DNA from: Callorhinchus milii
Taxonomy: Eukaryota
Length of the DNA stretch: 64,000 bases
NCBI RefSeq assembly: GCF_018977255.1
Contig: NW_024704742.1
Span: 122,142,001-122,206,000 of the forward strand
Direction of reading: 5' to 3'
Position 1 is the first letter of the stretch, and the number at the start of each line of letters is the position of its first letter. The notes under the pieces are model-generated. The model saw nothing but the letters and a program-made list of their open reading frames with translations. It was not told where the DNA came from and did not search any database. Below, piece by piece: positions 5,883-34,463 of this stretch. The position numbers and the translations under genes were made by a program.

Positions 5883-5904
5883 TTGGCTCATTTGGTTAGC
5901 ACTT

Positions 5905-5935
<31 letters not shown>

Positions 5936-6476: not shown

Positions 6477-6646
6477 GGAGTCCTATAGCTTAGTGGTTAG
6501 ACCACTCACCTCGCAAGTGAGAGGACCTGGGTTTGATTCCTGGGGAGGGAGAAACGTTGGGCAAGTTTCCTTACTCCACACATCTGTTTATCTAGCAGTA
6601 CGTAGGATCCCGGTTGTTAGTTGATTGCTGGATTGCTTTTCTGGGG
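6477..6646 (+). mobile_element. Young tRNA-Ala SINE, 5' half (long form)
   Basis: ggagtcctatagcttagtggttagac...gggtttgattcc A/B boxes followed by gggcaagtttccttactccaca; the 3' half is missing. Confidence 0.85.
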
Positions 6647-7719
6647 CTCTCAAGATTGGCATATAACTATATGCAATAATATTGAGATTCTGTAGAATAT
6701 GAGCATTTGGGAGGGGTGCCGTTTAAGGTGATTATTTGTTATATTATCGGTGAGATAGTAAATACTGTGTACAGGATTATTAAAATGTTAAATTAGGTAA
6801 GCAGGGTGCGTCCCTCCGGGAAGAGAAAACATATTCTATTCCAGACGCTGGAATTTCCATGTTTAGGTGGCACTGCATGGAACTCAAACTGGTTTACCAT
6901 ACATTACAATTTGCATTTATCTTGCGCTTTTCATGTCAGGAGATCATCTCAAAGCGCTTCACAATCCTGGATGGGTACGTAAGATGAGGTGGAGGATGGG
7001 CTGGTTTGGATACTCTTAAACATGATGATGTGTTAGACTCGCAGCTGATCTTTTGTTTAATATAATAACCAGTTAATACCCTCCTCATATTCAAGTACTG
7101 CAATTTATAAACAATCCCAATAAAAATGGAAGTAATATGCTGAAATACATTTTTAATTCTTATCTGCATATATGAAATGTTCATGAAAGACGTGATTGAA
7201 ATTTGCCAATGGTTTCTCCATTATTCACTAGCATCAACTTGAACAGAGGCTGACTGTGTTTGTTACGGAATTAATTACAGTCCTCATCAGATACTGCACT
7301 GAAGTAGCTAAATACGCAAATAATATCTTTAACTGTATTGCTGTGTTTCACTTGAGTTCTGGCTTTCAAATCCACTTATATTAATATTGTTCATTATCTA
7401 CTTCACCCCTATTTGTTGTCTGAGTCAAAACAATTTACAAATTATGTCCATAAAGACATTAGCTTTTCTTTTCATTTTCCCTGGCATTAGTGCTAAACTT
7501 GCTGTGGATTTGGTTGATATTGCATTAGCATTTGAGATATGACTGCAGAGAAAAATGTAAATAGTCGCTGACCACCTATTCAGGTTCAATGTGGAGTATG
7601 ATGGTCACAGCACAATAACAGCAACAACAACTTGTATTTAGATACACTTTCTGACAGCTCAGCCATCAAGTTGACAGCTTTTCTTTAAAGATATACACCT
7701 GCTGCTAAAACTGTTTTCT

Positions 7720-7950
7720 GTAGAAGGGGAAGGGAGTTTCCTGCAGTGTCCAAATGTACTGGCCAAGAATTCTCCAGATAAAAAATTACTTCATGTCTGT
7801 TTGTGGGACATTGATGTGTGCAAATTCACAGCCACAATTGTCTGCAAATACACGGTGACTACACTTTACAGTAAAATCCTGTGAGGAGCTTTGGGACATC
7901 TCGGTGATGTAATAAAGCGTTATCAAATATAAGAAATATTATTATTATTT
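7720..7950 (+). mobile_element. Old DeuSINE 3' fragment
   Basis: tttgtgggacattgatgtgtgcaaatt...ctttgggacatctc...(tta)n. Confidence 0.65.
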
Positions 7951-8302
7951 TCCCTGCAAACAAGCACCCCGATGTATTTATTGGAACATTTTTGTGTCAA
8001 ACCATCCAATAACTGAGATACTTGAAAAACTCCCCCTGTAAGTGTTCACATTTTCCATTACTTGGGTAACTCTCAAGGAACTAACTTAATATGTATGTGG
8101 ACTGTTGCCACAGACATTTGTTTAATTTAAATATTACATGCAACCACAGAGAACGATGCAGGTGTGTGATGGACTCTCACAGCCTTGAGTTCCTGTTCTG
8201 CTACATCGCTATGGGAGTTACTGAATCACATTTGAAATATAAAAGAATTATGATGCAAAAAAATCTACTGCATATGACAAAAATGACAACAGGTGGGTAA
8301 AG

Positions 8303-8491
8303 TTCCACCTGGGTCTAGATTTACTCTATTAAAGTAATATATCAGAGTCTCTAGAATTTGTCGAATTCTTAAATCTAGTCTTCAATTTCGATGCCAAAAA
8401 GGATTCAGAGTCAATTGATACTGAATTCAACAGTTTGACAATTCGGCAAAGCTCTGAAATGCTGTGTTAATAGATCTAGACCCAGGTGGAA
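8303..8491. mobile_element. MITE-like element with perfect 18-bp terminal inverted repeats
   Basis: ttccacctgggtctagat (8303-8320) and atctagacccaggtggaa (8474-8491). A partial second copy ends at ~50139. Confidence 0.7.
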
Positions 8492-8764
8492 TATTACTCT
8501 AGGGGTTTAATATGTAGCAATTCATAATCAGAATCACTGCTGTAACTGGAACATCAGGTCAACCAGTTAGAACTCTATTCCGATGCGATCTACTGTTGTT
8601 CCAATGGATTGGCATGAAGTGCTTTGGCTACCAACAGGAGATACTCTGCAACTCCACGAATCAACTCACATTTGGGCTCCTCCCCACCCTCATCCCCCTT
8701 ATTTCTGTGGCAGAATCAAAGAACAGAAATTTGGGAGCATTTGTGCAACAATACGTTGTTAATG

Positions 8765-8960
8765 AGTTTCTCCCGGTGTCCTGGTCAACAATCCCCAAAA
8801 TAAAATTGGTCATTCGTTTCATGGCTGTTTGTGGGACATTGCTGTGCACAAGTGTGCTGCCGAGTTTGCCTACAAACAATCACTTCGCTCCTGTGAAGCG
8901 CTTCTGAGATATCCTTCCAACTTTATAAAATACTATATCAAATGCAAAGATTATTATTAT
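8765..8960 (+). mobile_element. Old DeuSINE 3' fragment
   Basis: gagtttctcccggtgtcctgg...ctgtttgtgggacattgctgtgc...aaatgcaaagattattatt. Confidence 0.75.
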
Positions 8961-9714
8961 TTCTTCTTGTATTTACTTTAGTTTAAATTACAAAACTTTT
9001 TTGCTGGCACATATACTTTGCTAACCATTTTGCTAAATTAAGTCAATGTTTCTTAAAAGATAATTTAGTAAAGATTGATGATTGGGTTTTGGAATTACTG
9101 CTATCCAGCAACAATGCTGTTTCTATTCCCGAAGCAATGTTTCCAGAGATAGTCATCCTAATCATATGCATTCATTCTAGTGTAGTATTTTTAAACTGAA
9201 TGGTGCACTGAACTTTCAGAGTGCGAACGTTTTCTGCCCTTTTAAGAGGATTGTTTGTTTTGAATCATGTGTATACAGTGGTAAAGAGATTGGAGAAACA
9301 TTCAGAAATGAAGTTCAGTTCTCAGTGTGCAGATGCTATACTCTTAGTGGAAAATACAAATGTGTGCTTTGATTTGGGACAAGAGTAATGTTGGTGCAGA
9401 AATGGTGCTCCCTAGCTCAAAGGGCAGATCCCTCGGGTAAAGATCATCTATCCTGCAAAGTTGAACATTTGTCAAGTGCTACAAATCAAACAAGAGGAGT
9501 TAAGAATTATAGAATGTTTATAGCACAGAAAAAGGTCATTCAGCCTGTCATGTCTGTCCTGGTGCTAGTTTATGAACTCCATTCCCATTTCCCTGCTACT
9601 TCTCCATAAACGGTAATATTAGTTCTCCATTATTTGTCCAATTTAAGTATTTTTCTCCAACCTCATAGCCAAATAATACTGGATATTAAGTCTTGAGTTG
9701 AAACTATATTTTGC

Positions 9715-9860
9715 AAACTGGCACCTTTGATAATTCAGAGTGCCCCACCACAGTATTGGAGTGTCAGCTTGGACACTGAGCTCAAAGTCTATATGGGGCT
9801 TGAACCCACAACTGTTTGACTCAGAGACAAGAGCAATAGCAACTGAGCTAGGCTGACATC
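9715..9860 (-). mobile_element. Old DeuSINE 5' fragment
   Basis: Reverse complement of the tgtcagcctagctcagttg...tgggttcaagcccc head. Confidence 0.7.
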
Positions 9861-10249
9861 GCAAGCTTCGGGCAAAAATCACATTTCAAACTAAAACCGG
9901 TTCATCCAATAATTTCACAAAAGTGTTTCACAAAGTGATCTTCAGTTTTGTGACTTCAAAATGAAATGCTTTGAATAGTAGTTAGCTCACAGCGTATTGC
10001 ATTTTTTGAATATAACAAAAGAGCTGGAAAAATTATATTTAACTTTGCACAATGCCATTCTTTGAGAATTTAGAAAGAGCAAGATACTGTACATCAAAGA
10101 GTACTGGAGCACTGTGCTTCAGAAGTATTGGAAACATGTAACAGTGAACTATGCAGCAGTTATACAACATATTTGCAAGATTGAATGAGAAGGTCCATAT
10201 GGAATCAAAAATTACTAAAAATCTAGTAATTATCCTTCAATTTGTCATA

Positions 10250-10626
10250 GTGTTTTATGTCATCAAGATATCTCAATCACTTTCTTTGCAGTAAAATGTG
10301 GTGACTGTATTTCTAGGCAAATGTGGCAACCAATTTGACACACAATGTTCCATAAACTGCCGTGAAGTGAATGACCAATTTCATCTGGGGGATTGTTGGC
10401 CAGGACACCATCAGAAACATCCTTCTATTTTCCAGTAATTCCATGGGATTTTTATATACACATGAACAGGCAAATAGAACCCGGGTTTACAGCATTGCAG
10501 TCCTCCCCAGCACTGTTTTGGAATGTCAGCCTACACTGTGAGTTCAGAGTTCATAGTTATGTGTGGTTTGAACCCACAATCTCCTGTCTCATACTTAAGG
10601 GTATTGGTAACTGAGCCAGGGTGACA
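10250..10626 (-). mobile_element. Old DeuSINE, near full length, diverged
   Basis: Head at ~10626 (ctggctcagtt...gggttcaaacc) with core ctggccaacaatcccc and 3' part, in reverse orientation. Confidence 0.7.
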
Positions 10627-11133
10627 GTGCAGTACAACTCTGGTGTAATCTAATTTTTGAGACCTGCTTCCACAGCTATCTTCCTGGAGGTTGGTTCAGA
10701 ATGAGATCAATGGATCGAGCTGTGGCTTAATTCACACCTTACTGCAGCCAGTGTTAAAAGTATTGTGAAAGATATGCAAAAGCTTAAAATTCTGCATTGC
10801 AGCCCATCAGACAGGCTCGTTTTGTAAAGAAATAGGGATGATGTTGAGTAACAAAAAACTGAGAACTGGTGTTCGGTGCTGGTTGGTGGAGCTCTGCAAT
10901 GAATGGAACTCCACTTCCTATGAACTCAGCCTCGGGCTGGAGCAATTCAAAAAGGATAGCATAGCTATAGTTGAATCTACAGTTGAACCCTGCTTTGAAT
11001 CGCACCACTGCAGGCACAGCATCAAATAGGTGTCTGTGATAGAAGCAGAGCAGGAGAAAATATTTCCTCAATTGAAGAATTAATTGAACTCGGGTCCACA
11101 GATGACTTGATCACTTCAATATCTTCACTTATT

Positions 11134-11514
11134 GGAGTCCTGTAGCTCAGTAGTTAGAGCACTCGCCTCGCAAGCGAGAGACCTGGGTTCTATTCCGGGT
11201 AGGGCGAAATGTTGGGAAGGTTTCCTTACTCCACACACCTCTGTTTACCTAGCAGTAAGTATTAACCTGGTTGTTAGTTGATTGGCGGATCGCTTTCCAG
11301 GGATAATAATCCCTCAAAAAAAACAATAATAATTTAGTCACTCAATCTACGACTGTTTGTGGGACGCTGCTGTGTGCAATTGGCTGCCGCGTTTTACCCA
11401 CAAATATACAGTCAATTCACTTTACAGTATATTCTGTGAAGCACTTTGAGATGTCTAGAAGATGTGAAAAGCGCTATACCAAATGCAAGGATGTCAAATG
11501 CAAGGATTATTATT
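11134..11514 (+). mobile_element. Young tRNA-Ala SINE, full-length long form
   Basis: tRNA head with A/B boxes, central ctctgtttacctagcagtaagt segment, Deu-like 3' part and L2-type tail with a small caaatgcaaggat duplication. Confidence 0.92.
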
Positions 11515-12235
11515 GATCCACAAGTACAGTATCTGTGCTGTATCAGGGATCACCCAATTCACTCTGTCACAGAGTCAGAGTGAAACATGGAATGTACTTT
11601 AATGGTAATAAAGTGCAAAGGTTAAATGCCATCAGACCCTGCTGACTTTACTCCAAGAAAGTAGTATGTATTTGAAAGTCTCTGAGATTGATAGTTTATG
11701 TGAATCCCAAACCATAATAATGATAATCCTTGCATTTGATGCAGTACTGTTCATGTCAGAAGGACACTACAAAGATTCACAGAATTTTAGTCAAGTGTAG
11801 TGACTGTGTAGTTTGTAGGCAAATACAACTCAACAGTCTATACCATGTGAATCAGCTTACTATGATTTTATAGTTATCTTCATACATAACCAGAATACCA
11901 GTGCTATCAACTTGTGCAGTGGTGCATTGTTCATCAAAGATATGCACATTAGCTAGTCTTTTGCAAACTGGTTAAGAGGTTTACCTACGCTTGATTTGTT
12001 CTGGCAGACGTGAACTTTGTTCCCAGCAGTGTAGTGATGGAGAGCGGCAAACTGGGTTTACGCTGCCCCCTTTTGTTTTTATTTGGGCTGTTAAAAACAA
12101 GGGTTGTTATCAGACAAGGTTGATGTTAGTGTTAGTAAGGAGCTGATTTAGCTATTTCAAAGTGTTCACCTACTGTCACTCCACTTTACAGTACAATTTG
12201 TGAATCTCTCTGAACACGTCCTCCCAATGTATATG

Positions 12236-12385
12236 GCACCATTCAACAGTCCCACATACCATTCAGCCCCCCCTCCATATGATTCACATCCCCACATACC
12301 ATTCAACTTCCTCCCCCCAGAACCATTCAATCCCACATACTGTTCAATCTACCATCATAACATTCAATACCTCCAATCCCCATCC
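12236..12385. repeat. Degenerate C/A-rich tandem repeat
   Basis: Recurrent cccacataccattca(a) units. Confidence 0.55.
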
Positions 12386-13126
12386 CACCGGCCTTCTTGT
12401 TTACATTGCGAAGCCAGGAAATTATATTGTAACTGAAATCCCTTCCTTCAGGCAGCTTTAGAAAGACACAATCTTCCATGGACATACACACTGCCTGAGA
12501 AACCACTTATACTGCACATCAGGCAGCAAGTCACTGTGAATGCTGCCAAACTTTCAATATAAATGCAGCATTAATGCACAGCAAGGATAGTCAATTAGAG
12601 CTCTGAGATTTGTTAGTCCTGGTAACCATTAAAGGTTTCTTGATGCTAATTATTTCTTGGTGTTTTATGGAGAGTGATCAACTGAAGGCTATTTGAATAT
12701 AATTGCTCATGTGATACTCATGCATTTTGTACTTGTGATTGAAAATTGAATGTCATTACCCCGAAGTATATAAAACCAGTGTTGACAGCCTCAGGGATAT
12801 GGACAGACTAACTGAGCAGTAGAAAGTTGCTGGAAATCTATGGGGTAAAAAAAATCACTTTGGATCTAAACTGGCAGTTATAAAACCAGCCTCTTTTATT
12901 TCTAATTGTGTTTGCCCTAAAGTTGTTCCTTGGTAGATCTTCTGAATCAAACTAACATCAAGTGCATTGTGCTTTTAGATAAAAATATAAACCCAGCTGG
13001 CAATCTCCTTTATTTCTGTTTGAATATTTGACTTTTAATAGTCTGTTGGTTACTTAAAATCTAATAAGTACAACTTGTATGGTTCAAAGCACCCTTGCTG
13101 TTTATTAGAATACGCCTCATCACTTA

Positions 13127-13445
13127 GGAGTCCTGTAGCTCAGTGGTTAGAGCACTCGCTTCGCAAGCGAGAGACCTGAGTTCAATTCCAGGCAGGGCGA
13201 AACCTTGGGCAAGTTTCCTTACTCCACACGCCTAATAATAATCCCTCCAAAAAACAAAAACAATAATTAAATTGGTCATTTTCAATCTATGACTGTTTGT
13301 GGGACATTGCTGTGCGCAATTGGCTGCCGCGTTCGCCCACAAATATACAGTCAACTCACTTTACAGTATATTCTGTGAAGCGCTTTGGGACGTCCTCCCG
13401 ACGTGAAAAGCGCTATATCAAATGCAAGGATTATTATTATTATTA
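13127..13445 (+). mobile_element. Young tRNA-Ala SINE, short (internally deleted) subfamily
   Basis: The head is joined directly as ccacacgcc|taataataatccctcc. Nearly identical to the copies at 31842, 36329 and 50359. Confidence 0.95.
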
Positions 13446-13630
13446 GAGCTGGTGAAGCCGAGTCCTATTGGCTTCTAAAATGAATTGGACAAAACAATGA
13501 AGACAAATATTGAAGAATAACAGCATAGAGCAGGAATTAGTGCAGATAACTCTATAAAAGTTAGCACCAGCAAAGACATGATAAGCCAAATGGCCTTCTC
13601 TTGTGCTGTAAAGTTGCTACGATTCTATGT
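13446..13630 (+). mobile_element. CR1 LINE 3' end fragment
   Basis: ggtgaagccgagtc...gaattggacaa...agccaaatggccttctcttgtgctgta...attctatg. Confidence 0.55.
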
Positions 13631-15179
13631 CCAATCATTCAATACAGTAAAATAACACCTAACTAAATATATTTGAAACATCCTCGCAATGTGACTGATA
13701 AAAATAACAATCCTTGCAATTGATATAGCGCCTTATCGTATTTTCAAGATGTCTCAAAGCGCTTCACAGAATATACTGTAAAGTGAATTAGTGTATATCT
13801 TGACTGTAAGACACTACACCAACTGCAAGGATTGTTATTATATTGTTTCATAATTCACATGCAAAGGATGTTTCATCAGCATGCACCTTTTCCTGTTTTC
13901 TATTTTGGTTTGGGTTGAATTGCTGAACAAATGATTAAATGGGCTGTTGTTACAAGGTTTTGCCAATTGCCTTTTTTTGTGTAGTTAAAATGCTTATCCA
14001 AGCAAACCCACCCTGCACGTTCTGCATTTCTCTCTGTTCAACTGTAGCGGAAAGTTGTTCTATTGATATACGAAGCTTTTCGTGCTGCTTGACAAGCTAA
14101 ATGCAGGACTGGGTAATGCAGAAATACAGGATCTTTGTGTTGACAGTGATATAGGAGCCGTGGGTCTGCAAGTTTCTCATACTATCATTTCCAGCCTACG
14201 TACTTTACGGTGCATATTGCATACAGAATAACAGATAGGCGGGATTGATTGCAAAGCAGAAGGGTAATTTTGGGGTGAAGGAGGTTGGATGACATCAAAA
14301 CCTGTTAGAACAAAGCTCAAGCAATTTATTATAGTCATCTGAACCTTGAGATTAGATTACAGGCTTGGAAGGACTCCCAGGTATCTGTGATGTTTAGAAT
14401 ATGAAGTGTTTGTATTTTATTCCGATTATTTTTCTTTTTATGGTCCATTTGTCTGTGAGCAGCAAATGATCGTATGGACACCAACTGTTAGTGTTTTCTG
14501 TGTCCTTGATGTGACAGTTTATAATGTAATAAACAAATGTTTATTAAGAAATATGATTAAAGACACTTATTCAATGTTCAGTGCATACCATAATCAGGCT
14601 TTTCACCAGATAGCCAGTATGTTTAGACAAAATGCCTCCAGAAGTGTGTTACAAAGCTTGTAAAGAGAGAAAAATGCTTATTATCTCCCCTCTCTTATCT
14701 GATTCTGCATTTTAATTGGTAACAAGAGAAAACTATGTAGTAATCGAAGAGAAGCCAGTCACTTTTGAAATTGTGAACCTGTAATTATTTTCCTTCCTCG
14801 ACTCCATTTTATAGACAAACAGGACAGACCCCAGACATATAACCTGAAATTACTTACAAAAAAGAATTCCGTCCCACACAAGCGCCAAACACAATTGCAC
14901 CATGATGCAAAACATTTGTGTCTTTCTGCTTCAGTAGCACTACTGGCAGATCACAAACTGCTTTAGAAAGAGTTGAGATTATAGGCAATGCTGTTGTGGT
15001 TTAACACCCAGTCGTAACAGTAGAAAGGAAATTCACAAAAGCACCAGAAAGCATGGAACAGAGCTCCCCAGTGGTTTTCATAACTAAAGCTCCTGAACAG
15101 AGTGAAACTGAGACCTGGACGACCTCCAGTCCTGTTTTTAATTTGTACTGAGTTAGCTAATCTAAGACAGGCAAGTAGT

Positions 15180-15726
15180 TCCCTCCAACTCTTCCCTCCA
15201 CAAGCTACGGATCATCCAGAACTCTGCAGCTCATGTCCTCTCCCGCACCAGGCTCCATGACCCCATCACCCCACCCTCGCCCGACCCCACTGGCTCCCCA
15301 TCCCTCAGAGGATAGAGTTCAAAATCCTCATCCTCACTTTCAAGGCCCTCCACGTCCTTGCCCCCTCCTACATCTCTGACCTGCTGACCCCCTATCAGGC
15401 TGTCCTCTCCCTCCGCTCAGCAGGCTCTGGCCTGCTCCATGTTTCCCAACCAACCCGCCCAACCATCGGAGGCCGGGCTTTCAGCCTCACTGCTCACACC
15501 CTTTGGAACTCCATCCCACAATCCCTTCACCTTGCTCCCTCTCTTGCCTCCTTCAAGGCATGACTCAAGACCCTCCTTTTCGACTGTGCCTTCAGCTGCC
15601 ATCCTACATCTCTGCCCTTCCTCATCCCTACCCAGCCCTCCCACGCTCGAGTCCTGATCCCCATCTATTCAGCGCCTTGGGACATCCTCCGGACGTGAAA
15701 GGTGCTTTACTAATGTTGTTGTTGTT
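15180..15726 (+). mobile_element. L2 (LINE2) 3' fragment
   Basis: Encodes HWLPIPQRIEFKILILTFKALH...LAPSY...GGRAFS...LWNS, the L2 ORF2 C-terminus. Ends with cagcgccttgggacatcctccggacgtgaaagg...(ttg)n. Confidence 0.9.
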
Positions 15727-16079
15727 AGCTGACTGGAGATAGCCTCTATTGCCTCTGAGCTAGTCATGAGAAAATCTGCCAGGTTTCCCTCTTTAGCTCG
15801 CAACAGTGACCCAGTTAGAAAGTGTACTTGGTATAGATATAGGGAGAGGTTGTGCTGTTTATGTCTATCTCCTCATTACAACCGAACAAATTAATTCACT
15901 GATATTTTCTGGGCTCAACAACAACTTGATTTAAAATAGAATTCTTCATGCCGGACGGCATCTCGTAGCGCTTACATATTAAGAACAAATAAAAGAGCGG
16001 TAAGATTGCTTCTGCTGGTGTCAATCAAGGGTCAGGAGACCGCAAAAGAGGTTTGGATGAATAAGGCCCTTTGGCCCAA

Positions 16080-16300
16080 AATAATCTTTGCATTTGATAC
16101 AGCGCCTTAATCCAACATTGAGATGTTCTCAAAGTGCTTCACATGCTATTGTGTAAATAATAATAATATTGTGTAAAGTGAAGTGACTGTGTATTTTGTG
16201 GGTAAAATGCGGTAGCCAGTTGCGCACAGCCATGTCCCACAAACTATCGTGGAGTGAGTGAACAATTTTATTTGGGAGATTGTTGGCCAGAACCTATTGA
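16080..16300 (-). mobile_element. SINE 3' fragment
   Basis: Reverse-complement tail ataatctttgcatttgata and gtcccacaaac. Confidence 0.7.
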
Positions 16301-16654
16301 ATAGTGCCATCAAAATCAGAATGAATTTGTCTAATTTTTTTAAACATGAACTGAGCACAAAATTTCTCGTCAATCAACTATATTTTATTTCTTGATGAAG
16401 CTGTCAAAATGAATAAATAAACAAGGCAATAGTGGGGTTCCATTTTAAAGCAAAATAATCTACATCATCTAGTTTTACTGATCTAACATTTGCATTGCCT
16501 TCATCTGTTCGAATATTCTTCTCACCTGCAAAAGAGACATTTACAGGGTTCTCCACTGTTGACCTACTTTATGACCCAGAATCGTCTGATACACTTGTAC
16601 AACGCCAGTAATGGGTGTTACAAGCACCACACAGTTTGGGGATGGAAGGCACCT

Positions 16655-16902
16655 GTGCAAGTGTTAAAGATCCCTTATGGCACTGTTTGAAATGAGAAGG
16701 GAGTTTCTCCTGGTATCTTGGTCCAACAATATCAATATAATTGGTTGTTCATTTGATGGCTGTTTGTGGGATGTTGTGTGCAAATTGGCTGCCACTTTTG
16801 CCTACAAATGCATAGTCACTACACTTTACAGTGAATCCTGTGAAACATTTGTGACATCCTCCAGACGTGAAAAGTGTTATATCAAATGAAAGGATTATTA
16901 TT
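16655..16902 (+). mobile_element. Old DeuSINE core and 3' part
   Basis: aaagatcccttatggcactg...ggagtttctcctgg...tttgtggg...ggattattatt. Confidence 0.75.
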
Positions 16903-17486
16903 AAAAATAACAATAATAGCATAACAGTAAAATCTCACCAACCCACTGTTAAGGCTACTTTCTCAGTTTGTCGTTTGTTTGAAACTAATTGTGATGAAAA
17001 TTGCAAACCTGTTAATAAGGACAGAATAATCAATAAATAACAGTTTATTGAGTGGCATTTCTTGTTTCCACTCTAATCCTCTTTGCTTCTCACCTGCAGC
17101 CTGGTATTTCTGTGCGCTCATCTGAAGTGGTTTTAGATGATAAAGTATCACTGACGCTGGTTAATTCATTGCCTTCAAATGATTTTTTTTTCTCTGATGT
17201 ATTATTGAAGATAGATTTTTATTTCATTCCTGCTTTGTTTTATTTATTTGAAATTTCTCAAGATCATAGATTTAAGACGCTGGTTGTAAAATTTAAGATC
17301 CTGTAGAATTTTGGAAAACTCTGCCTTAATTCTTAAATTTGTATTTCACAATTCTTAAAAAGAAGGTAGAGAAAAACTGCAGAGAGCGAACTTTTCAATT
17401 GAGACTGAGTTTAAGAATCTACGACTATGAGAAATTTCGGGTCTGATTTGTGAACACTCAGTAAATAAGTATGTATGCAGCACAAA

Positions 17487-17522
17487 CTAATACTGTCTTT
17501 GTTTTCGTTTTTTTAGGTAAGT
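17487..17522 (+). promoter_or_regulatory. Candidate recursive splice site (branch point, polypyrimidine tract, TAG|GTAAGT)
   Basis: CTAAT at 17487-17491 and an AG-free T-rich tract, then AG at 17515-17516 immediately followed by the consensus donor GTAAGT at 17517-17522. Confidence 0.65.
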
Positions 17523-17638
17523 ACATTGCTTTCATTAACCCTACATTTACGTGAAAGAAAATAAAGTTTTTCCTCCTGTGAGCTGTGGGGATAGGAACCA
17601 CTCAGGATCTTAAGGATGGAGAGTAACTGCTAGAAACG
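17517..17638 (+). other. Putative 122-nt RS ('poison') exon
   Basis: Runs from the recursive site to the downstream donor ACG|GTAAGA (17638/17639) and has stop codons in all three frames. Confidence 0.5.
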
Positions 17639-18689
17639 GTAAGACTTTGCTGGTCCATTCAGATTCCAGTCAAGATTTCCTTTGACCAAGTTTGTTTAAA
17701 ATGGTTTCAAGAACAAAGAGCATCTGATGGCAGTGAGAGAGCAGAAGAGATTCATCTGATGAGTATAGGAAATCTTAACCCTAGACTGCTCATCTATGGT
17801 GAATCAAAGGTCATTTTACAAGACAACAATTCTCAACTTTATTTGCTATCTTGGTGAATAACATTTAAATAAGGTCTATGGGGGAATCACAATTGTAAAT
17901 ATGCACTTTCAGCTGCATTGAACACTGGGTTAGCAATAGCAGTACGGCAGTCTCTTGTTATTTTTCTAATTTTTTACTCTTTTTGCCTTAATGTTGTTTT
18001 CCCCGAGAAAATTATAGGACTCTCTGGATCTCCCTCACAGAAATGATCTGTCAGCTATCTTGTTGCCTGTGATATTGCACACAATAGAGTGTACACTGTG
18101 GAAATTTAAAGAGGACATGCTCAATTAGGGAATCCGAAAGTACCTTGGGAACTTCCTCTGATGTGGTCTACGTTTGGATGGGAGTTTCCAGGAGTTCGAA
18201 GGAAGTGGGTGAAGGAGTCCCCATTTTACTTGATTAAAGAACCCCATTTAAAATTTCAGAATTATACATTTCAGTCCCCATATTCCTGCTGTATTTGCAA
18301 CTGGGAATCAAATGCTCCATATTTCTTGCATACTCCAGTTCCAAACTCCATGAAGCTCTGCAGTCCTTTACATTTCATATATTGAAATTTTATCAATTTA
18401 GTCAGTGATTAAATATTTACAGAGACAAAATTTACTAGTTTCTTCATCATGAACCACATAAAACATAGTGAAATCCATTATGCTACATTTCATAACTGTA
18501 CCTGGAAGTTTTGTTAAATAATATGTCGGTTTTTTGGTCCTTATTTAATGATATATGCTGCTCTCTGTTGTAGGATTAACAACAATCAGATACATAAATA
18601 AACCGGGATTGTTCTAGTTTGTAAGTAGAATTTATTGCTGCATTACCTGAATATATTGCTCTAAAACTATTTCGGATGACTGCACTTTA

Positions 18690-18920
18690 ACTGCATTATG
18701 GAGTGTTTGGATGTGGAATGCTCTGCCAAGTAGTATGGTGGAGGTGGAGTCTATTGTAGCTTTCAAGAGAGAGGTGGACAGGCATATGAAAGAGTGGGGC
18801 TTGAAGGAGTATCGGGATAAGGCAGGGCGGGGGAACTGAAGTGATCTCCTTGCTCTGTGAGCCTGTGCGGACTCAATGGGCCAAATGGCCTCCTTCTACA
18901 CTGTAGATTTCTCTGTTTCT
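18690..18920 (+). mobile_element. CR1 LINE 3' end
   Basis: tggaatgctctgcc...gtggtggagg...ttcaagagagaggtggacagg...atgggccaaatggcctccttct. Confidence 0.75.
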
Positions 18921-19003
18921 AATGGGCCAATTACAACAGCAACTGTGCATGTGCTCAGCTAACCAGCTCACTCCTCATAATCTTAAAAAATAGCTAACTT
19001 CCA

Positions 19004-19085
19004 GGTCATGAGATTGTAGCTGATATCACTCCTGTTTGCTGTGCATGCATAGCAGACAGGAAGTGATGGTGGTGACCTCATGACC
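19004..19085. repeat. Imperfect ~80-nt palindrome (hairpin)
   Basis: Outer stem ggtcatgag/ctcatgacc and inner stem atcactcctgtttgct/agcagacaggaagtgat, around a gtgcatgcat centre. Confidence 0.7.
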
Positions 19086-19559
19086 CAGAACACAAAATGA
19101 AGAATACTGAGAGTTGCAGTTAACGATAAGTGTGAGTAATATCTTATAATGACCCACCCGTGACTGGATGGTTTAATTTGCAGTAAGTCTCCTTGGGATG
19201 CCATAACACAGTAATTGCCGACGACTGGAGTTACCCTCTGGTAGTTTGGCACATTCAGGGCGTGACTTCTGACAGGTTAACGTGACGTACCTTTGGTTAC
19301 TAGAAGGAAACCCATTTGCACAACACAAGATTCCTTATTAAAGTTTAATATTGCAAGGTGCACCCTCTGTCAGCCCTGCTATTGAGGTCTCCCTCCCTCT
19401 TGGGACAAAGCTGACACTTCCAGTTGCCCATTGTGTATTTTTACACAGATGTGGGTGGGGTAATGGATCTGTCTAGTCGGAGGGGTGGGATGGGGTGAGT
19501 TGAGAGGTGGATGGAAGTTGAGTGGTAGTGTTGGATGAAGTTTATGTCATTTTCTTCTT

Positions 19560-19755
19560 AGACACTCTTCTTAGACATTCTCTTTGACCGTGCTTTCAGC
19601 TCCCCTCTCGACTCTCTACCCCCTCCTCGCTCCCTCCCTTCCCTCCCCTCACCATTTCCCCCCTGCCCGGGTCCTGACCCAACTGTCCAGCGCCTTGGGA
19701 CGTCCTCCCGACGTGAAAGGTGCTCTATAAATGGAATCTTGTTGTTGTTGTTGTT
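19560..19755 (+). mobile_element. L2 3' end
   Basis: ctctttgaccgtgctttc, a pyrimidine-rich spacer, then ccagcgccttgggacgtcctcccgacgtgaaagg...(ttg)n. Confidence 0.85.
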
Positions 19756-22700
19756 AGACACCATTTTCCATTTTCTGCGTACAATTACTTTTGCGTGACT
19801 GCACATCTTATTAATTCACTTTGCTTTCCTCTCAGTGCCAGACTAATTCCAGAACAATTCATTTGTTTACTAGTCTGCCTGCAGTCAAGCATGTATTTTA
19901 TTAGAAAAAATTAAATGATGAACAAAAACTATTTGGGGGGGAGGGAAGGGAGGAGAAGCCTTTGTTGTAACACACTGACTAAAACACACCATTAGTTTCC
20001 TTCAGTTTGCTTGGTGAACATGATTACGAAGAGATAATGTTTGGGATTATATTTTATTTTCTACTATCTTGGATTTGATTTGTATACTATAACAGTTCTG
20101 CTGTGGGACATTGGAATAGACAATAATAATATAAGCATATTTTCTGAAGAATGCTGAATGAGATAGTGAAATGAATAAAGCACGGTAGTCATATTGCTCC
20201 CTTATATCACGGAGAGCTAAACATGGTTATGAATTCTCTCCTAATCAGTGCAGTGCAATGACATTAATAATGGGAATAATGAAGATCATATTGTTAAAAG
20301 GTATACGCAGGTATGTACACAAATACCCTTTCTGGAATTAAATAGCAGTACATTGGGAGGAAATGTCAGAGGATGATTCATACTGAAAGCAATTTCTTGA
20401 ACACTTCACTCTTGGTCTCTACCACAATTCTTGCTGATGATTCAGCTTGGTACAAATAAATATTTCCTAATGTCGGTCCTAAAATTCACTGCCCAGAACC
20501 TATTGCCTTTTAATTGTTGGAAATATTATACATGGCTTGTTTTCTTTGTTCCATTGAGCATTTTTATACCTAACTCTGTAAGGTCTACTTTGAGACAGTC
20601 TTTTTGGAGGCTGCAGAACACTACTTTTTCAATCATCATCTTATTTTTGTTTTCCTGCCAACAATCCCACAGATAAATTGGTTATTCACTCAAAGGCTGT
20701 TGGTGAGCCTTGTTGTACACAAATTGGCTGTCACATTTGTCTTGAGGGGAATATGATACAATTGTGCAGTTATTATTAATAATAATCATAATCCTTTCCT
20801 TTGGTACAGCACCTTTCATATCACAAGGGTGACTCAAAGCGCTTCACAAGATATACTATAAAATATAATGAATGTTTATTTGTAAGTGAACAGGCCAGCT
20901 CAATGGTGTATAGCAGTGTCCCACAAACAACCATTAAATGAATATCTAACTTCATTTGGGAATTAAATATTCAATAGAAAGCCACTCTACTATGCTTCAT
21001 AATGTTATGTTGCTGAACTCCAGAAGTGATCAGTGTTCCTGATGTTCTGAATGTAAAATTCATTGCCTGTCTTGCCCTTTCACTATCAACCTGCAGAGGA
21101 CAGCATTTGATCTTTTCAAAAAAAATGTTTTTTGCGTTTCTTGTTTTGTCAGAATATGATTTTGATACTCTGTACCTTACAGATCATAAAACGGTGAAGC
21201 ATTTTAGCCTGGTCTGGGATTTTATTTGCCATTGTTTTTTTGATAGCTTTTCAAACAGCAAAAGAGACCAAATATTTTCTAAATCAAAAGAAGGGATATG
21301 TTGTCTCCCTGTCTCAATCTCTCCACTTTGCTTCCTCCTACCTCATCTTCAGATTGCATCTGAACATTTTCCTCTTCCATTTTCCCTTTCTCCCCAGCTC
21401 AGCATTAAGCTCCGCAAATGTTGTTATATTTATTTGCACTCAGCGTTATCCCAGTCAAAAATCCCAACCTTTGATCATTTCTACTGTTTATGAATACCTG
21501 TAAAAGTTTAAGTAAGTTATCTGATTGGGTCATGTTCAGATTATCTGCCATTTAGTTAACAGTGAGATTTATTAGTTCAAGAAATATTACTGTTAATGTT
21601 GATGCAGAACACTCTTCCCATTGAAATAGTAAACATTTGAGATGCTGTACAGTCAATTCACTTTACAGTACATTCTGTGAAGTGCTTTGAGACGTCTAGA
21701 AGACGTCTCAAAGTCAAATGCAAGGATTTTTATTATATTATTACGGTGAACAGTAAACCTCTTCGACACTGATAGATATCATCTGAGCAGGAAGATTTAT
21801 GTCTACAAAACAATCGCAATACTTGACAGCATAGATATAGGACAGAATAGCTGAAGAATTTATTCACAGCTTTTACTGTACAGTATGTGTTATTAATCTT
21901 TATTAACTGGACCATTTAACTGGGGTATGAGCATAATATTTACAGGTTACAAAACCAGGCTGTACTGAGTGCCTATTACACCAATCTGGATTCTGTGCAG
22001 TTACCAACTATCATGGGCGCTGTTGGTATGTATGGCTTCGAAAGCTAATATTTCAGGTTCATAAACATAAAATCCATTGTAAAAAGAAAAAATCCAATCC
22101 GATTTAAGATTTTGACAGCGTTCAAATTGGGAAGTGGTAAAAAAAATCAATAAAATAAAGTCATTTGAAATAGCACCTTTCACGTCAGGAAGATGTCTCA
22201 AAGCACTTCCCAATATATGCTGTAAACTGTAATGACTATGTATGTTATAGGCAATTGCGGCAGCTAATTTGCACACAGCAATGTGCCACAAAAAGTTATG
22301 AATTTTATTCTGGGGCCTTGTTGGTCAGTATTCTCCTAAATTAAATCATATTAAACCCATAAGATTCAATCATTATTCAATTACCCAATTGTGATTTCTT
22401 AAGTGATAGTTATGTTCAATTCTGTGGTCTGTTAAATAGTTAAGCCATATAATAGTTACTGTTAACCATTCCTGATGGCTTGATGTGAACATCAGCAAAG
22501 AAGAGGACCATGAGCTCCAATTGAAAGTGTTGTGAACTCGGACAACCATAAAACATTTACTGTTAAACATTCACATGTATTGACTTCTTGGTGAATAAGG
22601 ATGTTAAATCAACTGGTTGACCTTTTATTTCTGTGTCAAAAAACACTGCTGGATGAAATCTACATTGATTTTCTGCAATATGTGCACCAGTCACTGGATA

Positions 22701-22764
22701 GTGAAGCCTGTCATGCACTGAATTATTTCAACATATGGCAAACTGTGTGAATTAACTGTGCAAA

Positions 22765-23270
22765 TTGGTGTACCCCCAGGGGTTGGTATTAGGACCACTG
22801 CTCTTTTTGATCTATATAAATGGCATGGACTTGGGTATAGGGAGTACAATTTTCAAGTTTGCAGATGATACTAAGCTAGGAAAAATAGTAAGTGTTGAGG
22901 AGAGTAGCAGATTGCAAGAGGACATAGACAGACTGGTAAAATGGGAAAGCACATGGCAGATGAAGTTTAATATAGAGAAATGCGAAGTGATGCCTTTTCA
23001 GAGGAAGAATGAGGAGAGGAGATTGATGGCACAATCTTAAAGGGGTTGAAGGAACAGAGAGTCCTGGGGCTTAATGTAAGTAAATGTTTGAAGGTGGCAG
23101 GAAAGGCAGACAAAGCTATTAAAAAAGCATACAGGATACTTGTTAGGCCTAAACACTGGTTAGGCCTCAGCTGAAGACTGTGAACAGTTCTGGGCACCAC
23201 ATTTTAGGAAGGATGTCAAAGCATCCTGCCGAATGGCCTCCTTCTATGCTGTATAATTCTAATGTTTCTA
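22765..23270 (+). mobile_element. CR1 LINE RT and 3' fragment, frameshifted and internally deleted
   Basis: Translates to VxPQGLVLGPLLFLIYIN...FKFADDTKLG...LQEDIDRLVKW...WQMKFN.EKCEV and ends with gccgaatggcctccttct. Confidence 0.9.
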
Positions 23271-23562
23271 TGATAAACTTCACTTAATAAACAACAAATC
23301 TAGCAGCTAATTCCAACAGACACTATAATTTTTATAGCATGACTTTTGTGATGCATTTTCAGAGGTGCAGACAAGATACAACAGCTGGATTATTTGTCAA
23401 ATTGAACAGAACAATCGATGCCAAACTGTGAAGTACTTTGATGTAACTTTGAAGAAATTCAAAGACAGTAACACATCACGAGAGAAACCTGGCTAACATA
23501 TTTATAGTACTGTTTAGTATAGTACTGCTATATTTAAGAGTTTGAGACATCCTCTCGACATG

Positions 23563-23884
23563 AATAATATAATAATAATAATCCTTGCATTTGATATAGC
23601 GCTTTCCACGTCTTCTCGACGTCTCAAAGCGCTTCACAGAATAGACTGTAAAGTGAATTCACTGTATATTTGTAGGCGAAACGCGGCAGCCAATTGCGCA
23701 CAGCAGTGTCCCACAAACAGTCGTGGATTGAAAATGACCAATTTATTATTGTTTTTTTTTTTGGAGGGATTATTATTAGGTGTGTGGAGTAAAGAAACTT
23801 GCCCAAGGTTTTGCTCTGCCTGGAATTGAACCCAGGTGTCTCGCTTGCAAGGCGAGTGCTCTAATCACTGAGCTACAGGACTCC
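23563..23884 (-). mobile_element. Young tRNA-Ala SINE, short subfamily
   Basis: Reverse complement of a full element, ending at gagctacaggactcc. Confidence 0.92.
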
Positions 23885-24179
23885 ACAAAGTAGTATGAAA
23901 AGTAGTATATAAATGCAAATAATATTGTATTGTATATTGATCTCACCTGAATCCTTACTTATGTTACTGTTGTGAAACAAAATAAGTAACACAAATAGAC
24001 AGCAACACTCTGGGTGTGATTTGCTGATGTGATTTCCCTTTTTTTCCTTTTCCATTTTTTTTTGGCAGCTGGGTGTCTGACACATGCAGGGACCCATCAT
24101 CATACTTAAGAGAATCCAAACCAATTAAATGAGAATTCAATGAAATCCCTCCTATATATGGAAATTTTATTGAGATATT

Positions 24180-24410
24180 TATTGGAATAGAATGCGCACT
24201 CTTTCCCTAGAAGCATGCATCCTACTTACCTAATTCTGGAAAATATTAGGCGTAGAATGGCAAGAGCCAAGGTTCCAGATACTATTGGAGTCTAACCAGC
24301 TAAACCTGCATAGCTTGCTATTGAGAGCACTGCCTGTCAAGCTTTCCCGCTGCTTATCCACCGAAGACCACACTACCCGTTAGGGTTTTGGCTTGCAGGG
24401 TTAAGAGAAG
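24180..24410. repeat. Unclassified interspersed repeat (second copy at ~47925-48180)
   Basis: Both copies share ggcaagagccaagg...catagcttgc...ttcccgctgcttatcca...gttaggg.tttggcttgcagggttaa. Confidence 0.7.
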
Positions 24411-25110
24411 TTGAATGGAATGACTCCATGCCTCCAATGAGTAGTCTGACTTTCCAGGTCCGGCCAATGAACCAGGTGGTGTCATCAACAGTGCTCTGAA
24501 GTAGTGCGGACCCGCCTGGCTCAGGAACTGGACTACCAAGATCGCCAGAGGATGGGCTGGATTCTGACATTCCATTGCCAAACATTATCACCTTGGAGTC
24601 AGTTCAGCTTGAAGGAGACTCTGCTTACCCTCCTCCAATAGGATGGAGGGGGATCCCCTTTGCATCTTCCACAGCTCTCACCCTAACTGAGATGGTGGGT
24701 GGATAAAAACAACAGCTTGTTGTTATCCACCCATGACAGGTCTCTGTATTATTCCAGGAGCTAAGCTAAGCTCTGAACAATGTGGCCTGAAAATGTTATT
24801 CAAAACATGCCTAGGTACTGGGCCAAATGTGTGCTAGAGCACACATTTATAATTTTTGTAGCATAGTTTTGGTGATGCATTTGGACTAGAGGTACAGGTA
24901 TGTTGCATCGATGTTTCAAACTCAGGAACAATGTAAGGAAGACTGACAAATTTGATAGTGAAGAATCTTGAGCAACAGTATTTCATAGAAACAATATAAA
25001 TATCTGTTACTCATAATAAAAAATAAAACGCCTCACTTAACTTTGTGAGTTTTAAAACTCAAGTCCTTAAAAAGGGGGAAATTTGTTCTGCAACCAAATG
25101 CAACTTAGAC

Positions 25111-25526
25111 AGCTCAGTAGTTAGAGCACTCGCCTCGCAAGCGAGAGACCTGGGTTTGATTCCCGGCAGGGCGAAACGTTAGGCAAGTTTCCTTACTCCA
25201 CATGTCTCTGTTTACCTAGCAGTAAGTAGGACCCCGGTTGTTAGTCGATTGGCGGATCGCTTTTCCTCGGGTAATAATTCCTTAAAAAAATAATAAATTG
25301 GTCACTCAATCCTAATAATATATACATTTTTTAAAATGATATATTCTATTAATAAAAAAGCAAGACACAAGTATGACTATTTGTGGGACACTGCTGTGCG
25401 GAATTGGCTGCCGGGTTTTGCCCACAAACATATAGTCAATTGACTTTACAGTATATTCTGTGAAGAGCTTTGAGACATCTCGAAAACGTGATAAGGCGCT
25501 ACATCAAATGGAAGGATTATTATTAT
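25111..25526 (+). mobile_element. Young tRNA-Ala SINE, long form, with a ~60-bp AT-rich internal insertion
   Basis: Canonical element interrupted after cactcaatcc (~25312) and resuming at atgactatttgtggg (~25373). Confidence 0.88.
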
Positions 25527-25676
25527 TCTATGCCCTTAAAATAGGATTTTTCATTGAAGTGGATTCATTTAGTGGTAGAGAAATTTCTCTGCCAGTTCTC
25601 TATAGTAATTGAAGCAAAGTTACCTCAACAAAAAGTGGTTTTGTTCCCCAAAATGAAAAGAAGTTTTCTCAAATTT

Positions 25677-26590
25677 CATAGAATCATAGAATCGTACAGC
25701 ACAAAAGGAGGCCATTCGGCCCATCGAGTTTGTGCCGGCTCTTTGATTAGAGCAATTAATGTCAGTCCCACTCCCCAGCCCTTTCCCCATAACCCTGCAA
25801 ACCCATCTTCCTCAAATACCCGTCCACCGCGTTTTTAAAAGTTGTTATTGAATCGGCCTCGACCACTCTTTCAGGCAATGCTTCCCAGATTCGAACAATT
25901 CGCTACGTGAAAAAAAATTCTCATTTCCCCTCTGCTTCTTTTAGATACTATTTTGAATCTGTGACCTCGAGTCACCGACGCACCCACCAGTGGAAACAGT
26001 TTTTCCCTTTCTAATCTATCAAATCCCTCATGATTTTGAAGACCTCTATTAGGTCTCCTCGTAACCTTCTCTGTTCCAATGAGAATAATCCTAACCTCTC
26101 TCGCCTTTCCTCATAATCAGGGTCCCTCATTCCTGGTACCATCCTCGTAAACCCAGAACTGGGCGCAGTATTCCAACTGAGGCCTAACCAGTGTTTTATA
26201 TGGGTTAATCATAACCTCCTGACTCTTGTACTCTATGCCACTATTTATAAAGCCTAGTATCCCATATGCCCTTTTTACAGCTTTATCTACCTGTCCTGCC
26301 ACCTTCAAGGATTCATTTACCTGCACCCCCAGGTCTCTCTGTTCTTTTACCCCTCCTTAAGATTGTATTACCAGCCTATATTGCCTCCCCTCATTCTTTC
26401 TCCCAAAATGCAGTACCTCACCTTTCTCCACATTGAAACTCATCTGCCATGTGTCTGCCCATTTTACCATTCTGTCTATGTCTTCCTGCAGTTGGCTACT
26501 ATCCTTCTCACTGTTTACTACCCTACTTAACTTTGTGTCGTCCGCAAACTTGGAAATGGTGCTTACTATACCCAAGTCCAGATCATTTAT
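25677..26590 (-). mobile_element. CR1 LINE RT-to-3'-end fragment
   Basis: Minus-strand ORFs give YINDLDLG...SKFADDTKL...LQEDIDR and LVRPQLEYCAQFW. A (catagaat) tail lies at 25677. Confidence 0.92.
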
Positions 26591-26630
26591 GTAGTCCAGA
26601 TCATTTATCAATTTACATGGATTATCTGTG

Positions 26631-27429
26631 ACTGTGTAATCTATCATCTTGTAGGTAAATTACACTGTTCAAAGATGTGATGCAGTTTAAAGCAAATGAA
26701 AGAAACTTTCAATATTTATTATTTCCCATAATCTTTCTGTAACATTTTTATGTCATTGTGATACCATCCATATAGACAAGATTTTGCACACTTTAGTGAA
26801 CTGTATGCCTGGAACATGTCACAGTTCTAACCAAGGAAAGCAACACATCTAAGCTGTGGGTCCATGTTGCAGCACTCTATAACTGATGGTTTTATGATAT
26901 TTAAGAGTGTCACATTCAAAGGAAATGTTTCAGCTGAGTGGCATATCCGAATAATAACGTCCATTATGCCAGTACTGGTATTAAGGGATATGAGTCAAGG
27001 GGGTTAATTGGACCTGAGGTACAGATCAGCCATGATCTTATAAAATGGCAGAACAGGCTCGAGGGGCTGAATGGCCTACTCCTGTTTCTATGCTTCTACT
27101 GTATTTTATAAATAATTAGTCAAGGCAAACACTAGTACTTTAAACCATAACGCTTTGAATAATGGCAACGTAATGATAATTTAAGTGAGTCAATTGTAGA
27201 AACCAATTTCCCTTGACATCTAGCAATGCAATTTGAATGTGTTGTTATAACAGTTGTGTGTTTTAAGAAACGTATTTCATGAGCAAAGAGCGCCATTGCG
27301 GATTTTAATTTGTAGTATTTAACATCATTCCACCGATAAAAATAAATGTTGAAAGTTTCTTTCATTTTTTAAAAACTGCATCACTGAGTGAACGGTGTCA
27401 ATTCCCTACAAGGTGATAGAGTACACAGT
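26631..27429. mobile_element. Old non-autonomous DNA-transposon-like element with ~90-bp imperfect TIRs, carrying a CR1 3' end (~26975-27095)
   Basis: 26631-26720 (actgtgtaatctatcatcttgtagg...gtgatgcagttt...aatgaaagaaactttcaa) is the reverse complement of ~27340-27429. Confidence 0.7.
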
Positions 27430-29234
27430 GGCACTTGGGAATAAAGTGAATTGAAGAAAACATCTTTTGATTTTGTGGAACAAAGTCAGGAATTCTATGC
27501 CAGAAACAGAATGTACTGTAGTGGTGCATTACAACAACAACAACAACTTGCATTTATATAGCGCCCTCCATGCCTGGTGGTGTATCAGAGCGCTTGGCAA
27601 TGGCGGAACACAAGCTCTTTGAGACATTTTGAAGATGTAATTAAGCGCTCTTATCAATTGCTAGAATTATTTATGATTTATTTATTCACTTAGTCCTGTG
27701 ACACGAAGGAGCCCCCATTTAGGGCACTCCGATTCATTACTAAAGAACACATGCAATTTACATTTACAAAACATCTTTCATGTTGGGAGGTACTGGGTAT
27801 GTACCTGGGCTAGGAGTGGGAGCTATAGAGGGTGAGAGGGGAAAGATAACCAAAAGCACAGTCAAAGAGAGTGAATCTCACTACGAAATAGTGCAAATTT
27901 GACTCCTTAAAGTTACCAACTCAGTCACCAGGGAAAGGCTAATGCAGAACCATTAACAACCTATTTCTTTATTTGCCTTCACACACAGCTTTCATAAAGA
28001 TCAACATTCACGGAATTTATAACAATTTAACAAGCTGGGCAAAGAAGAAACTTGGTACAGTAAAACTCCCATATGTCTGATCTGTATAAATTGGATTTAT
28101 TTATTTACTTATTCCAGTGATAGGAAGGAGACCCCAGCTGCTTAAGTCCCGTTCAAGCATTTATAATCTATATAAGTTTGACATAACTCATACTTTGCAT
28201 AAGTCATGTTAAATGTATGACGTATACATAACCCAACTGATATGACTTATGTGAGGTTTAGAAATTCAACAGCCATGATCAATTGGAAACATTCTGCGGT
28301 ATTCTGCTCAAAAACATTAAATGTAGTCGCACTTACAATTGGATTTCTCACTAAAACCACACATTGAAGCATTTGCTACAGTGATGGGTGCAGAATAACC
28401 CCTCCTGACTGGGATCAGTGACTAATGGAGTTTTGAATAGCACTTTGTACCTGAGTGTAGCTGATAAAATCTACTTGTTCAGTGAAGGTTGCTACCTTTT
28501 GATTGTTATAAAGTGTTAGTGCAGCCAGCACGGCACTAATAGAGTTTGTGTAGAGCCGGTCAGTGGAGCTTGCTGCTATTAACCGCGTCTGCATATTGCA
28601 GCTAAAAGCCATTCAAAGAAGCTGCTAACAAAACCATGGGAGCTGCAGCAGAGTGAGGGGCACCTGATTTAGCAGCCAAATCACAAGGCAATTCCCATAT
28701 CTTTGAAATGCAATACCAGAATTTTGCTTTAAACAGAAGTAAATTATTTAGTGAACTCAATGTGAGCCCACTCACACAGATGTTGGCTTACACCCATTCT
28801 GTTAGCTGCAAACACACTACCTGCATTATCATAACCGCTGAGCCACGAGAAATTAATAGCTTCAATTCATACAGGACTGGTTATGCAACGGTATTTGTTT
28901 CATTAATTGCATGTTGTAATGTGGTAAAATTGTGCATTGTAAGAGAACACCTGCACAGACTTAATTTACGAGCTGGTGCTGAGTGTGACTGTCACTGGGG
29001 TTTTCCCTCCTTCCTTTGTGAGGCAGTACCCATGAAAGCATTGCCAGAGATCAGTAATGGTAAAACATCAAAAGTTCAGTATGTGTTTGCAAGTGGATGC
29101 TAAAGATGCTACAACTCTGTTCAAAAAGAAAAGGAAATTGTGAGACGTCACAATGAACAAGACGCATAGTTATTTTCCATTTGTGAGAAAATGTCCAAAC
29201 ATGGCGCTAGGCAGTTACCAATTTTATTTAAAAA

Positions 29235-29540
29235 TAATAATAATCATTGCATTTGATATAGCCCCTCATCATGTCATCGAGATGTCTTGAAGCGCTTCAC
29301 GAGATATACTGTAAAGTGGATTGACCGTATATCTTGTGGGTGAAACACGGCTGCCAGTTGAGCACAGCAGTGTCCCACAAACAGCCATGGAGTGAGTGAT
29401 CAATTTCATTTGGGGGATTTGTTGGCCGGAACACAGAGTGAAACTCCCATCTCTTTTTGAATAGTACCATTGGGTCTCTAACGTACACCTGAATAGGCAG
29501 ATAGGAACTGGTTTAATTTCTCATCCGAAGGACGACACCT
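29235..29540 (-). mobile_element. DeuSINE core and 3' part
   Basis: Reverse-complement tail, then gtcccacaaacagccatgg and gttggccggaacac...ctctttttgaatagtaccattggg. Confidence 0.8.
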
Positions 29541-29611
29541 CTTGTAAATTGCAAATAAACATATACTTACCAACTTAATGTGAAGGGTGAGCCTGTTTCT
29601 CTGGAGACAGT

Positions 29612-29795: not shown

Positions 29796-29839
29796 TGATC
29801 AACTGAACAGTGAACTGAACACCTAATCACCAGGGACAT

Positions 29840-34430: not shown

Positions 34431-34463
34431 CTGTTGTCTTTAATACAACTTACAGGATATTCA

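Follow-up and report, generated by a model that had tools for sequence, protein, structure and literature searches.

The stretch of Callorhinchus milii DNA analysed here (the window: 64,000 nucleotides of contig NW_024704742.1, C1:122142001-122206000, forward strand) contains at 17516/17517 a back-to-back splice acceptor and donor which is, we are fairly confident, the middle one of three recursive splice sites in PDE4D, inherited from the jawed-vertebrate ancestor and orthologous to the second mammalian site, RS2 (human chr5:58764261, mouse chr13:109550007). The anatomy of the site, its host gene, the order of the sites and the phase of the intron are established here, and both the orthology with mammalian RS2 and, by way of that orthology, the use of the site in C. 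milii are probable. An earlier note on this DNA had proposed a functional recursive site in a cartilaginous-fish gene; that a recursive-type site lies in a 243-kb intron on the + strand is borne out, while its function is something that we infer.

The elements that the note had read around the junction are all present. A predicted branch point, CTAAT (17487..17491, + strand; A17490, at -27 from the acceptor G), is followed by a T-rich polypyrimidine tract that ends in the TAG acceptor (17492..17516, +), fits the tract of mouse RS2 best and likely represents the PDE4D RS2 orthologue, and then by the recursive donor GTAAGT (17517..17522, +), inside which lies an in-frame TAA (17518-17520). The AG-free zone is 34 nt long, and 17 of the 20 nucleotides before the AG are pyrimidines. 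When scored with a rough splice matrix, this site is the top acceptor and donor composite on both strands of the window (8.8+6.8, with 4.2+7.1 for the runner-up). A further donor, ACG|GTAAGA (17636..17644, +; GT at 17639), which is the highest scoring within 500 nt by the same rough matrix, bounds a candidate cryptic RS-exon of 122 nt (17517..17638, +), a putative partner in exon definition that holds three stops in each of the three frames. The D3- and D5-type first exons of PDE4D both end in CTG, and the joining of either one to 17516 would create CTG|GTAAGT, the very sequence of the D3 exon's native donor, so that a donor would be regenerated on use of the acceptor just as the note had stated. 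With the rough matrix this reconstituted donor scores 6.64 for the D3 and D5 joins, and the downstream donor 4.6. Antisense CAG|GTGAGA composites with moderate tracts also occur at window 16526 and 1249 (-), and are probably due to chance or derived from repeats.

The host gene was sought in the window plus 200 kb on either side. No convincing coding exon was predicted anywhere in the 64-kb window. Exons downstream on the + strand match PDE4_UCR and PDEase_I (Pfam matches for four of the seven exons queried), and for one catalytic exon the bit scores are 105-106 with PDE4D chains and 90-94 with PDE4A/B/C. Judged by these exons and by the first exons described below, the host gene is PDE4D, on the + strand. 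The flanking sequence, to which the earlier note had looked for the identity of the host, thus supplied it, and the new host gene that the note had considered possible turned out to be one of those it had listed. A CADM/NTM/ROBO-type host was rejected after an I-set search in which none was found near the window among the 150 scored of 1632 candidates. The only match in an ESM Atlas search (0.76) was uninformative.

The first exons follow one another along the + strand in the order D5-, D3-, D8- and D9-like, and then comes the first shared exon of PDE4D (C1:122293423, +). The D5-type exon (donor C1:121950637; L022:8366-8637, +) was recognised by a peptide motif and by its match to PDB 1e9k, which we take to be the D5 peptide. 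It has 25 homologues, all those with a gene name being called PDE4D or pde-4, and it shares 70-76% identity with its counterparts in five sharks and rays and 55-66% with the matches from bony vertebrates, which marks the DNA as that of a cartilaginous fish, probably a chimaera; in the homologues the D5 exon is joined directly to the shared exon. The D3-type (donor C1:122050520; L032:8474-8520), D8-type (C1:122209125; L002:3038-3125) and D9-type (C1:122261261; L007:5191-5261) exons, all on the + strand, were labelled by peptide motifs together with the order of PDE4D first exons given in the legend to Fig. 6 of PMC2929239. The D3 and D5 exons both end in phase 2, and the host intron, from the D3-type exon to the first shared exon, measures 243 kb and is of phase 2. 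The window lies in this PDE4D intron over its full length (1..64000, +), downstream of the D3-type first exon and upstream of both the D8-type exon and the first shared exon. Most PDE4D long-form N-termini are described as being found mainly in mammals (PMC2929239); D5-, D3-, D8- and D9-type first exons were all found in C. milii.

Human PDE4D contains three recursive sites supported by junction reads (hg19 chr5 58981769, 58764261 and 58678237; PMC6110456, S2 Table), of which RS2, chr5:58764261, was new in Zhang et al. 2018 (PMC6110456), and three are also tabulated for mouse Pde4d (chr13 109333510, 109550007 and 109614417; Moon and Zhao 2022, PMC8797253, S3/S4). The C. milii gene appears to have the same arrangement. 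Its span from the D5 exon to the shared exon is 343 kb, and within it the tract is at least 70% pyrimidine in three of the six sense YAG|GTAAGT sites versus none of the four antisense ones. One of the three strong sites lies between the D5- and D3-type exons, and the other two, both in the window, lie between D3 and D8. The first, a TAG|GTAAGT at C1:122004044 (L028:1980-2384, +) with donors downstream at +40 and +331, is by its place in the gene the likely orthologue of RS1. The second is that at 17516. The third, a recursive-type TAG|GTAAGT with its junction at 49367/49368 (49327..49373, +), is likely the RS3 orthologue and the predicted next stepping stone; its tract, at 70% pyrimidine, is weaker than that at 17516, its AG-free zone is 54 nt, branch-point-like motifs stand at -24, -30 and -41, and no good donor was seen within 500 nt downstream (best 2.3, rough matrix). 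Expressed as fractions of the span, the three sites lie at 0.156, 0.609 and 0.702 here versus 0.149, 0.543 and 0.699 in human, where the two intron starts used are ones that we take to be D5 and D3. The candidate RS2 lies 109.0 kb from D3 in C. milii, compared with 107.7 kb in mouse and 117.9 kb in human. The pieces of the D3 intron, 109 + 32 + 102 kb here versus 118, 86 and 166 kb in human, are not proportional, and the gap from RS2 to RS3 is 32 kb here versus 64 kb in mouse and 86 kb in human.

The tract itself points the same way for the middle site. Aligned to 17516, the mouse RS2 tract scores 12, with 30 background sites scoring no more than 5, over 20 nt of low-complexity sequence; a 16-mer common to mouse RS2 and site 17516 occurs three times in the genome, one occurrence being the site itself. 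Less favourable to the orthology, the tracts of RS1 and RS3 do not stand out, their matches being equalled by 2 and 3 of the 30 background sites respectively, and the mouse RS3 tract fits 17516 (score 6) better than 49367 (score 2). Also on this side, the end of the upstream exon is ACG for RS2 and RS3 in the mouse table versus CTG in the D3-type exon here. Between themselves the three C. milii sites are identical at 15-17 of 54 positions and show no likeness beyond the motif, and the possibility that they are copies of one repeat was ruled out, as they have no common sequence beyond it. Multi-copy sequence makes up about 37% of the 464 kb examined, and LINE-like reverse-transcriptase fragments occur in the window at 15179-15735, 25669-26660 and 34078-34500.

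Motifs of this kind are scarce in the genome. TTTTTAGGTAAGT occurs 38 times in 991.5 Mb versus 269 times for the reversed control, and Y7-AGGTAAGT 259 times versus 892, so that the recursive-type motif is depleted 3- to 7-fold relative to the reversed control. The expectation for Y7-AGGTAAGT is 0.017 per 64-kb window and 0.045 in the 343-kb span, which gives a P of about 1.4e-5 for three or more, a figure to be read in light of a pattern chosen after the three sites were seen, but also of a background count that a dispersed motif family pushes up (it accounts for 14 of 30 loci examined, of 259). The site at 17516 could nevertheless be a chance motif, or a relic no longer in use in C. milii, as there are after all 259 Y7-AGGTAAGT matches genome-wide and the contig joints listed include no junction at the site. 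We consider this very unlikely, since three sites on the same strand occupy the right intervals of a gene known to carry three, and the genome is depleted in the motif. The dispersed family is an observation in its own right: a CTCF-core-like motif, with up to 2 substitutions allowed, lies within 35 nt upstream of the AG in 14 of 30 Y7-AGGTAAGT loci (30 of the 259) versus 59 of 4740 control 35-mers. The loci seem to represent a dispersed element that combines a CTCF-like core with CAG|GTAAGTG at a fixed distance downstream. Two other loci, C1:51888124 (-; L056) and C1:56041850 (-; L061), have a long tract, AG-free zones of 79 and 34 nt respectively and AG|GTAAGT, and are candidate recursive sites.

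Another way to read the GTAAGT is as no more than the donor that closes a conventional exon lying upstream, such as 17100-17516, or an alternative first exon missing from the annotation. In its favour, the acceptor at 17099 scores well (7.8, rough matrix), PDE4D has many promoters (PMC5342582), and an internal promoter could also yield the step in contig depth described below. However, 17100-17516 is 417 nt long with 9, 8 and 13 stops in the three frames and contains repeat sequence at 17249-17339, and an ordinary donor has no need of a branch point, of a 34-nt AG-free tract or of a tract like that of mouse RS2. It would also leave the two partner sites unexplained, and we regard this explanation as extremely unlikely.

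If the site is recursive, as we favour, a possible course of splicing is as follows. In a transcript from the D3 or D5 promoter, the first exon (or RS1) would be spliced to the acceptor at 17516, with the tract and branch point read by U2AF/U2, probably aided by U1 bound to the 17639 donor through exon definition. The join would recreate CTG|GTAAGT, the same donor that the D3 exon has of its own, and this donor would then beat the one at 17639 and be spliced either to RS3 at 49367 or to the first shared exon. No part of the site would be left in the mRNA, and the 243-kb D3 intron would be removed in pieces of 109 + 32 + 102 kb. A model of exon definition and donor competition has been put forward for recursive sites (PMC6224609, PMC5126111). 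Human lariat reads show the RS2 donor linked to two branch points upstream of RS3, at distances of 20 and 33 nt (PMC6110456, S4 Table). In view of these lariats, and of the branch-point-like motifs before 49367, the most likely path would run from D3, or from D5 via RS1, to 17516, then to 49367 and on to the shared exon.

The second donor and the stops of the candidate RS-exon carry less information than their presence might suggest. About 12% of sampled positions have, 40-350 nt downstream, a donor that equals or exceeds ACG|GTAAGA, and for this reason the donor at 17639 is only modest evidence for an RS-exon. Of 1046 stretches of 122 nt sampled from the window, 721 (69%) had stops in all three frames, and 817 did so when forced to start with GTAAGT. 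Because the intron is of phase 2, the one relevant stop is the TAA within GTAAGT: a Trp codon is completed by the first base of the RS-exon, the TAA comes directly after it, and the other frames play no part. Inclusion of the exon would place the stop at codon 92 of D5 transcripts and at codon 17 of D3 transcripts. In mammalian tests NMD is inactive in the first 21-23 codons (PMC12776119), and it is likely that the D5 stop is competent for NMD and that the D3 stop, being close to the start, escapes it.

These figures bear on the proposal that the main job of the site is to provide a poison cassette exon of 122 nt (17517-17638), the regulated inclusion of which would consign long-form PDE4D mRNA to NMD. 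In support of such a role, a real donor closes the exon, inclusion gives a stop at once, and 68% of human RS-exons contain a premature termination codon (PMC6110456); moreover the related 9-mer ACGGTAAGT has a MaxEnt score of 11.81 (PMC8797253), so the rough matrix (4.6 vs 6.6) may underrate the donor at 17639. However, the stops in three frames are at chance level, the D3 stop at codon 17 falls within the codons where NMD is inactive, and C. milii contigs from three runs, described below, are unspliced across 17638/17639. In mouse, the tables of PMC8797253 give 0 down-junction reads for the Pde4d RS-exons at all three sites, and the exon listed for RS2 is 230 nt long with a donor score of -1.09. 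We therefore think this role quite unlikely. Given the chance-level stops, the codon positions of 92 and 17 and the 0 mouse down-junction reads, regulated NMD through the candidate RS-exon is possible but unsupported, and the claim of the earlier note that the exon is a used, NMD-triggering poison exon does not carry over from its correct description of the donor and stops.

A more elaborate scheme would keep a place for the exon. The three-step PDE4D ratchet may have been kept since the jawed-vertebrate ancestor, despite the 32-kb step, as a promoter-dependent switch rather than solely as a help in removing long introns. Each GTAAGT site in this phase-2 intron puts a stop directly at the junction. 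Occasional inclusion of the RS-exon would thus lead to loss of D5 transcripts, with their stop at codon 92, whereas in D3 transcripts the start would open an upstream ORF of only 16 codons, out of reach of NMD, and re-initiation at a downstream in-frame ATG of the first shared exon would yield PDE4D without its targeting N-terminus. This we put forward as an unlikely, speculative idea.

Assembled contigs from four of 13 runs (X1, X2, X4 and X5), whose RNA status was guessed and which came without a DNA control run, cover parts of the region. No junction at 17517 or 17638 is found among the joints listed for these contigs, an assembled form of data that drops rare forms. An X1 contig (17319-18906) reads through the site in genomic form, and the 17638/17639 boundary is bridged unspliced by contigs of three of the four runs, X1, X4 (17577-17850) and X5 (17544-17731). 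Contig depth in X1 is 6.6-8.3 upstream of the site (four contigs) and 33.5-39 downstream (three contigs), a 4.9-fold difference that runs in the saw-tooth direction, although depths of contigs are no guide to the ranking of different parts of a gene. Nor can the step be placed exactly at 17517: the depth of the spanning contig (30.5; 33.4 is predicted for a step at 17517) agrees with any position between about 17320 and 17850, and the step is no more than a hint of a saw-tooth. In X4 and X5 there is zero cover in the bin 17176-17509 and some in 17510-17843, where residual cover implies further short contigs beyond those listed; X2 has zero cover over 17510-18511, against the X1 pattern, absent cover being counted as evidence in none of these runs. 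The listed X2 contig depths differ little (2.4-3.2 upstream, 2.4-6.1 downstream).

The short contigs 17577-17850 and 17544-17731, from two runs of one study, begin just past the site, and together with ATTAAA at 18233 and 18408 they could be taken to mean that the acceptor at 17516 serves a cryptic terminal exon, with the transcript cut short a few hundred bases further along. However, there is no canonical poly(A) signal at those contig ends, the sole AATAAA being at 17560, the X1 contigs go on for kilobases downstream, and cleavage signals are absent from typical RS-exons (PMC7997972). A cryptic last exon is accordingly hard to credit, and a recursive site that leaves nothing of itself in the mRNA remains the preferred reading.

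In mammals both the mechanism and its presence in this gene have been described before, and so, probably, has the very site. What would be new, if our interpretation is correct, is an ordered set of three PDE4D recursive sites in a cartilaginous fish. We found no report of recursive splicing in cartilaginous fish in a search that lay outside subscription papers and bioRxiv supplements; the alignments of Sibley 2015 may bear on fishes. The available portions of a lungfish preprint (10.1101/2024.12.11.627982) and of a 2026 human survey (10.64898/2026.09.10.750672) do not cover cartilaginous-fish PDE4D sites, and PDE4D gave 0 matches in the supplements of PMC10156609. Cartilaginous fish and mammals separated about 450 million years ago (PMC6238376), and stepwise removal of the PDE4D intron is probably older than the split between sharks and bony vertebrates. 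If so, individual recursive sites would have been conserved from cartilaginous fish to mammals, which argues for long-term selection rather than splicing noise, and human RS2, missing from the original nine sites, would be dated. The sites would also provide exact and cheap RT-PCR targets in a compact genome.

Those nine high-confidence vertebrate recursive sites, reportedly described by Sibley et al. 2015 in CADM1/2, NTM, OPCML, ROBO2, ANK3, HS6ST3 and, as RS1 and RS3, PDE4D, resemble the C. milii site in having YAG|GTAAGT, a strong tract and a position in a first, very long intron; a cryptic RS-exon with stop codons and competition between two donors would be further points in common. PDE4D RS2, in contrast, is not among the nine. 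It is present in Sibley's putative list (PMC6110456), and functional tests of recursive sites have been extended to zebrafish cadm2a (PMC5126111). Like the ratchet points of Drosophila, the site has an acceptor and a donor back to back that would divide a long intron, with a downstream donor that may aid definition as it does in flies, but the fly sites belong to unrelated loci and another lineage and are far more numerous (197 in flies versus 10 in human; PMC6224609). Mammalian RS2 differs in that junction reads, a saw-tooth and an RS2-to-RS3 lariat have been shown there (PMC6110456; PMC8797253), whereas the C. milii site is known from its sequence; in addition, the host span is 343 kb here versus 552 kb in human, and the donor at +122 here is clear, whereas the mouse exon is tabulated at 230 nt and its donor is very weak (PMC8797253). 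In other respects the site corresponds closely to human and mouse RS2, being in the same gene and the same interval as the second of three sites, at a distance of about 108-118 kb from the first exon upstream, with a G-interrupted T run that ends the tract before AG|GTAAGT and with a third site before the D8-type exon.
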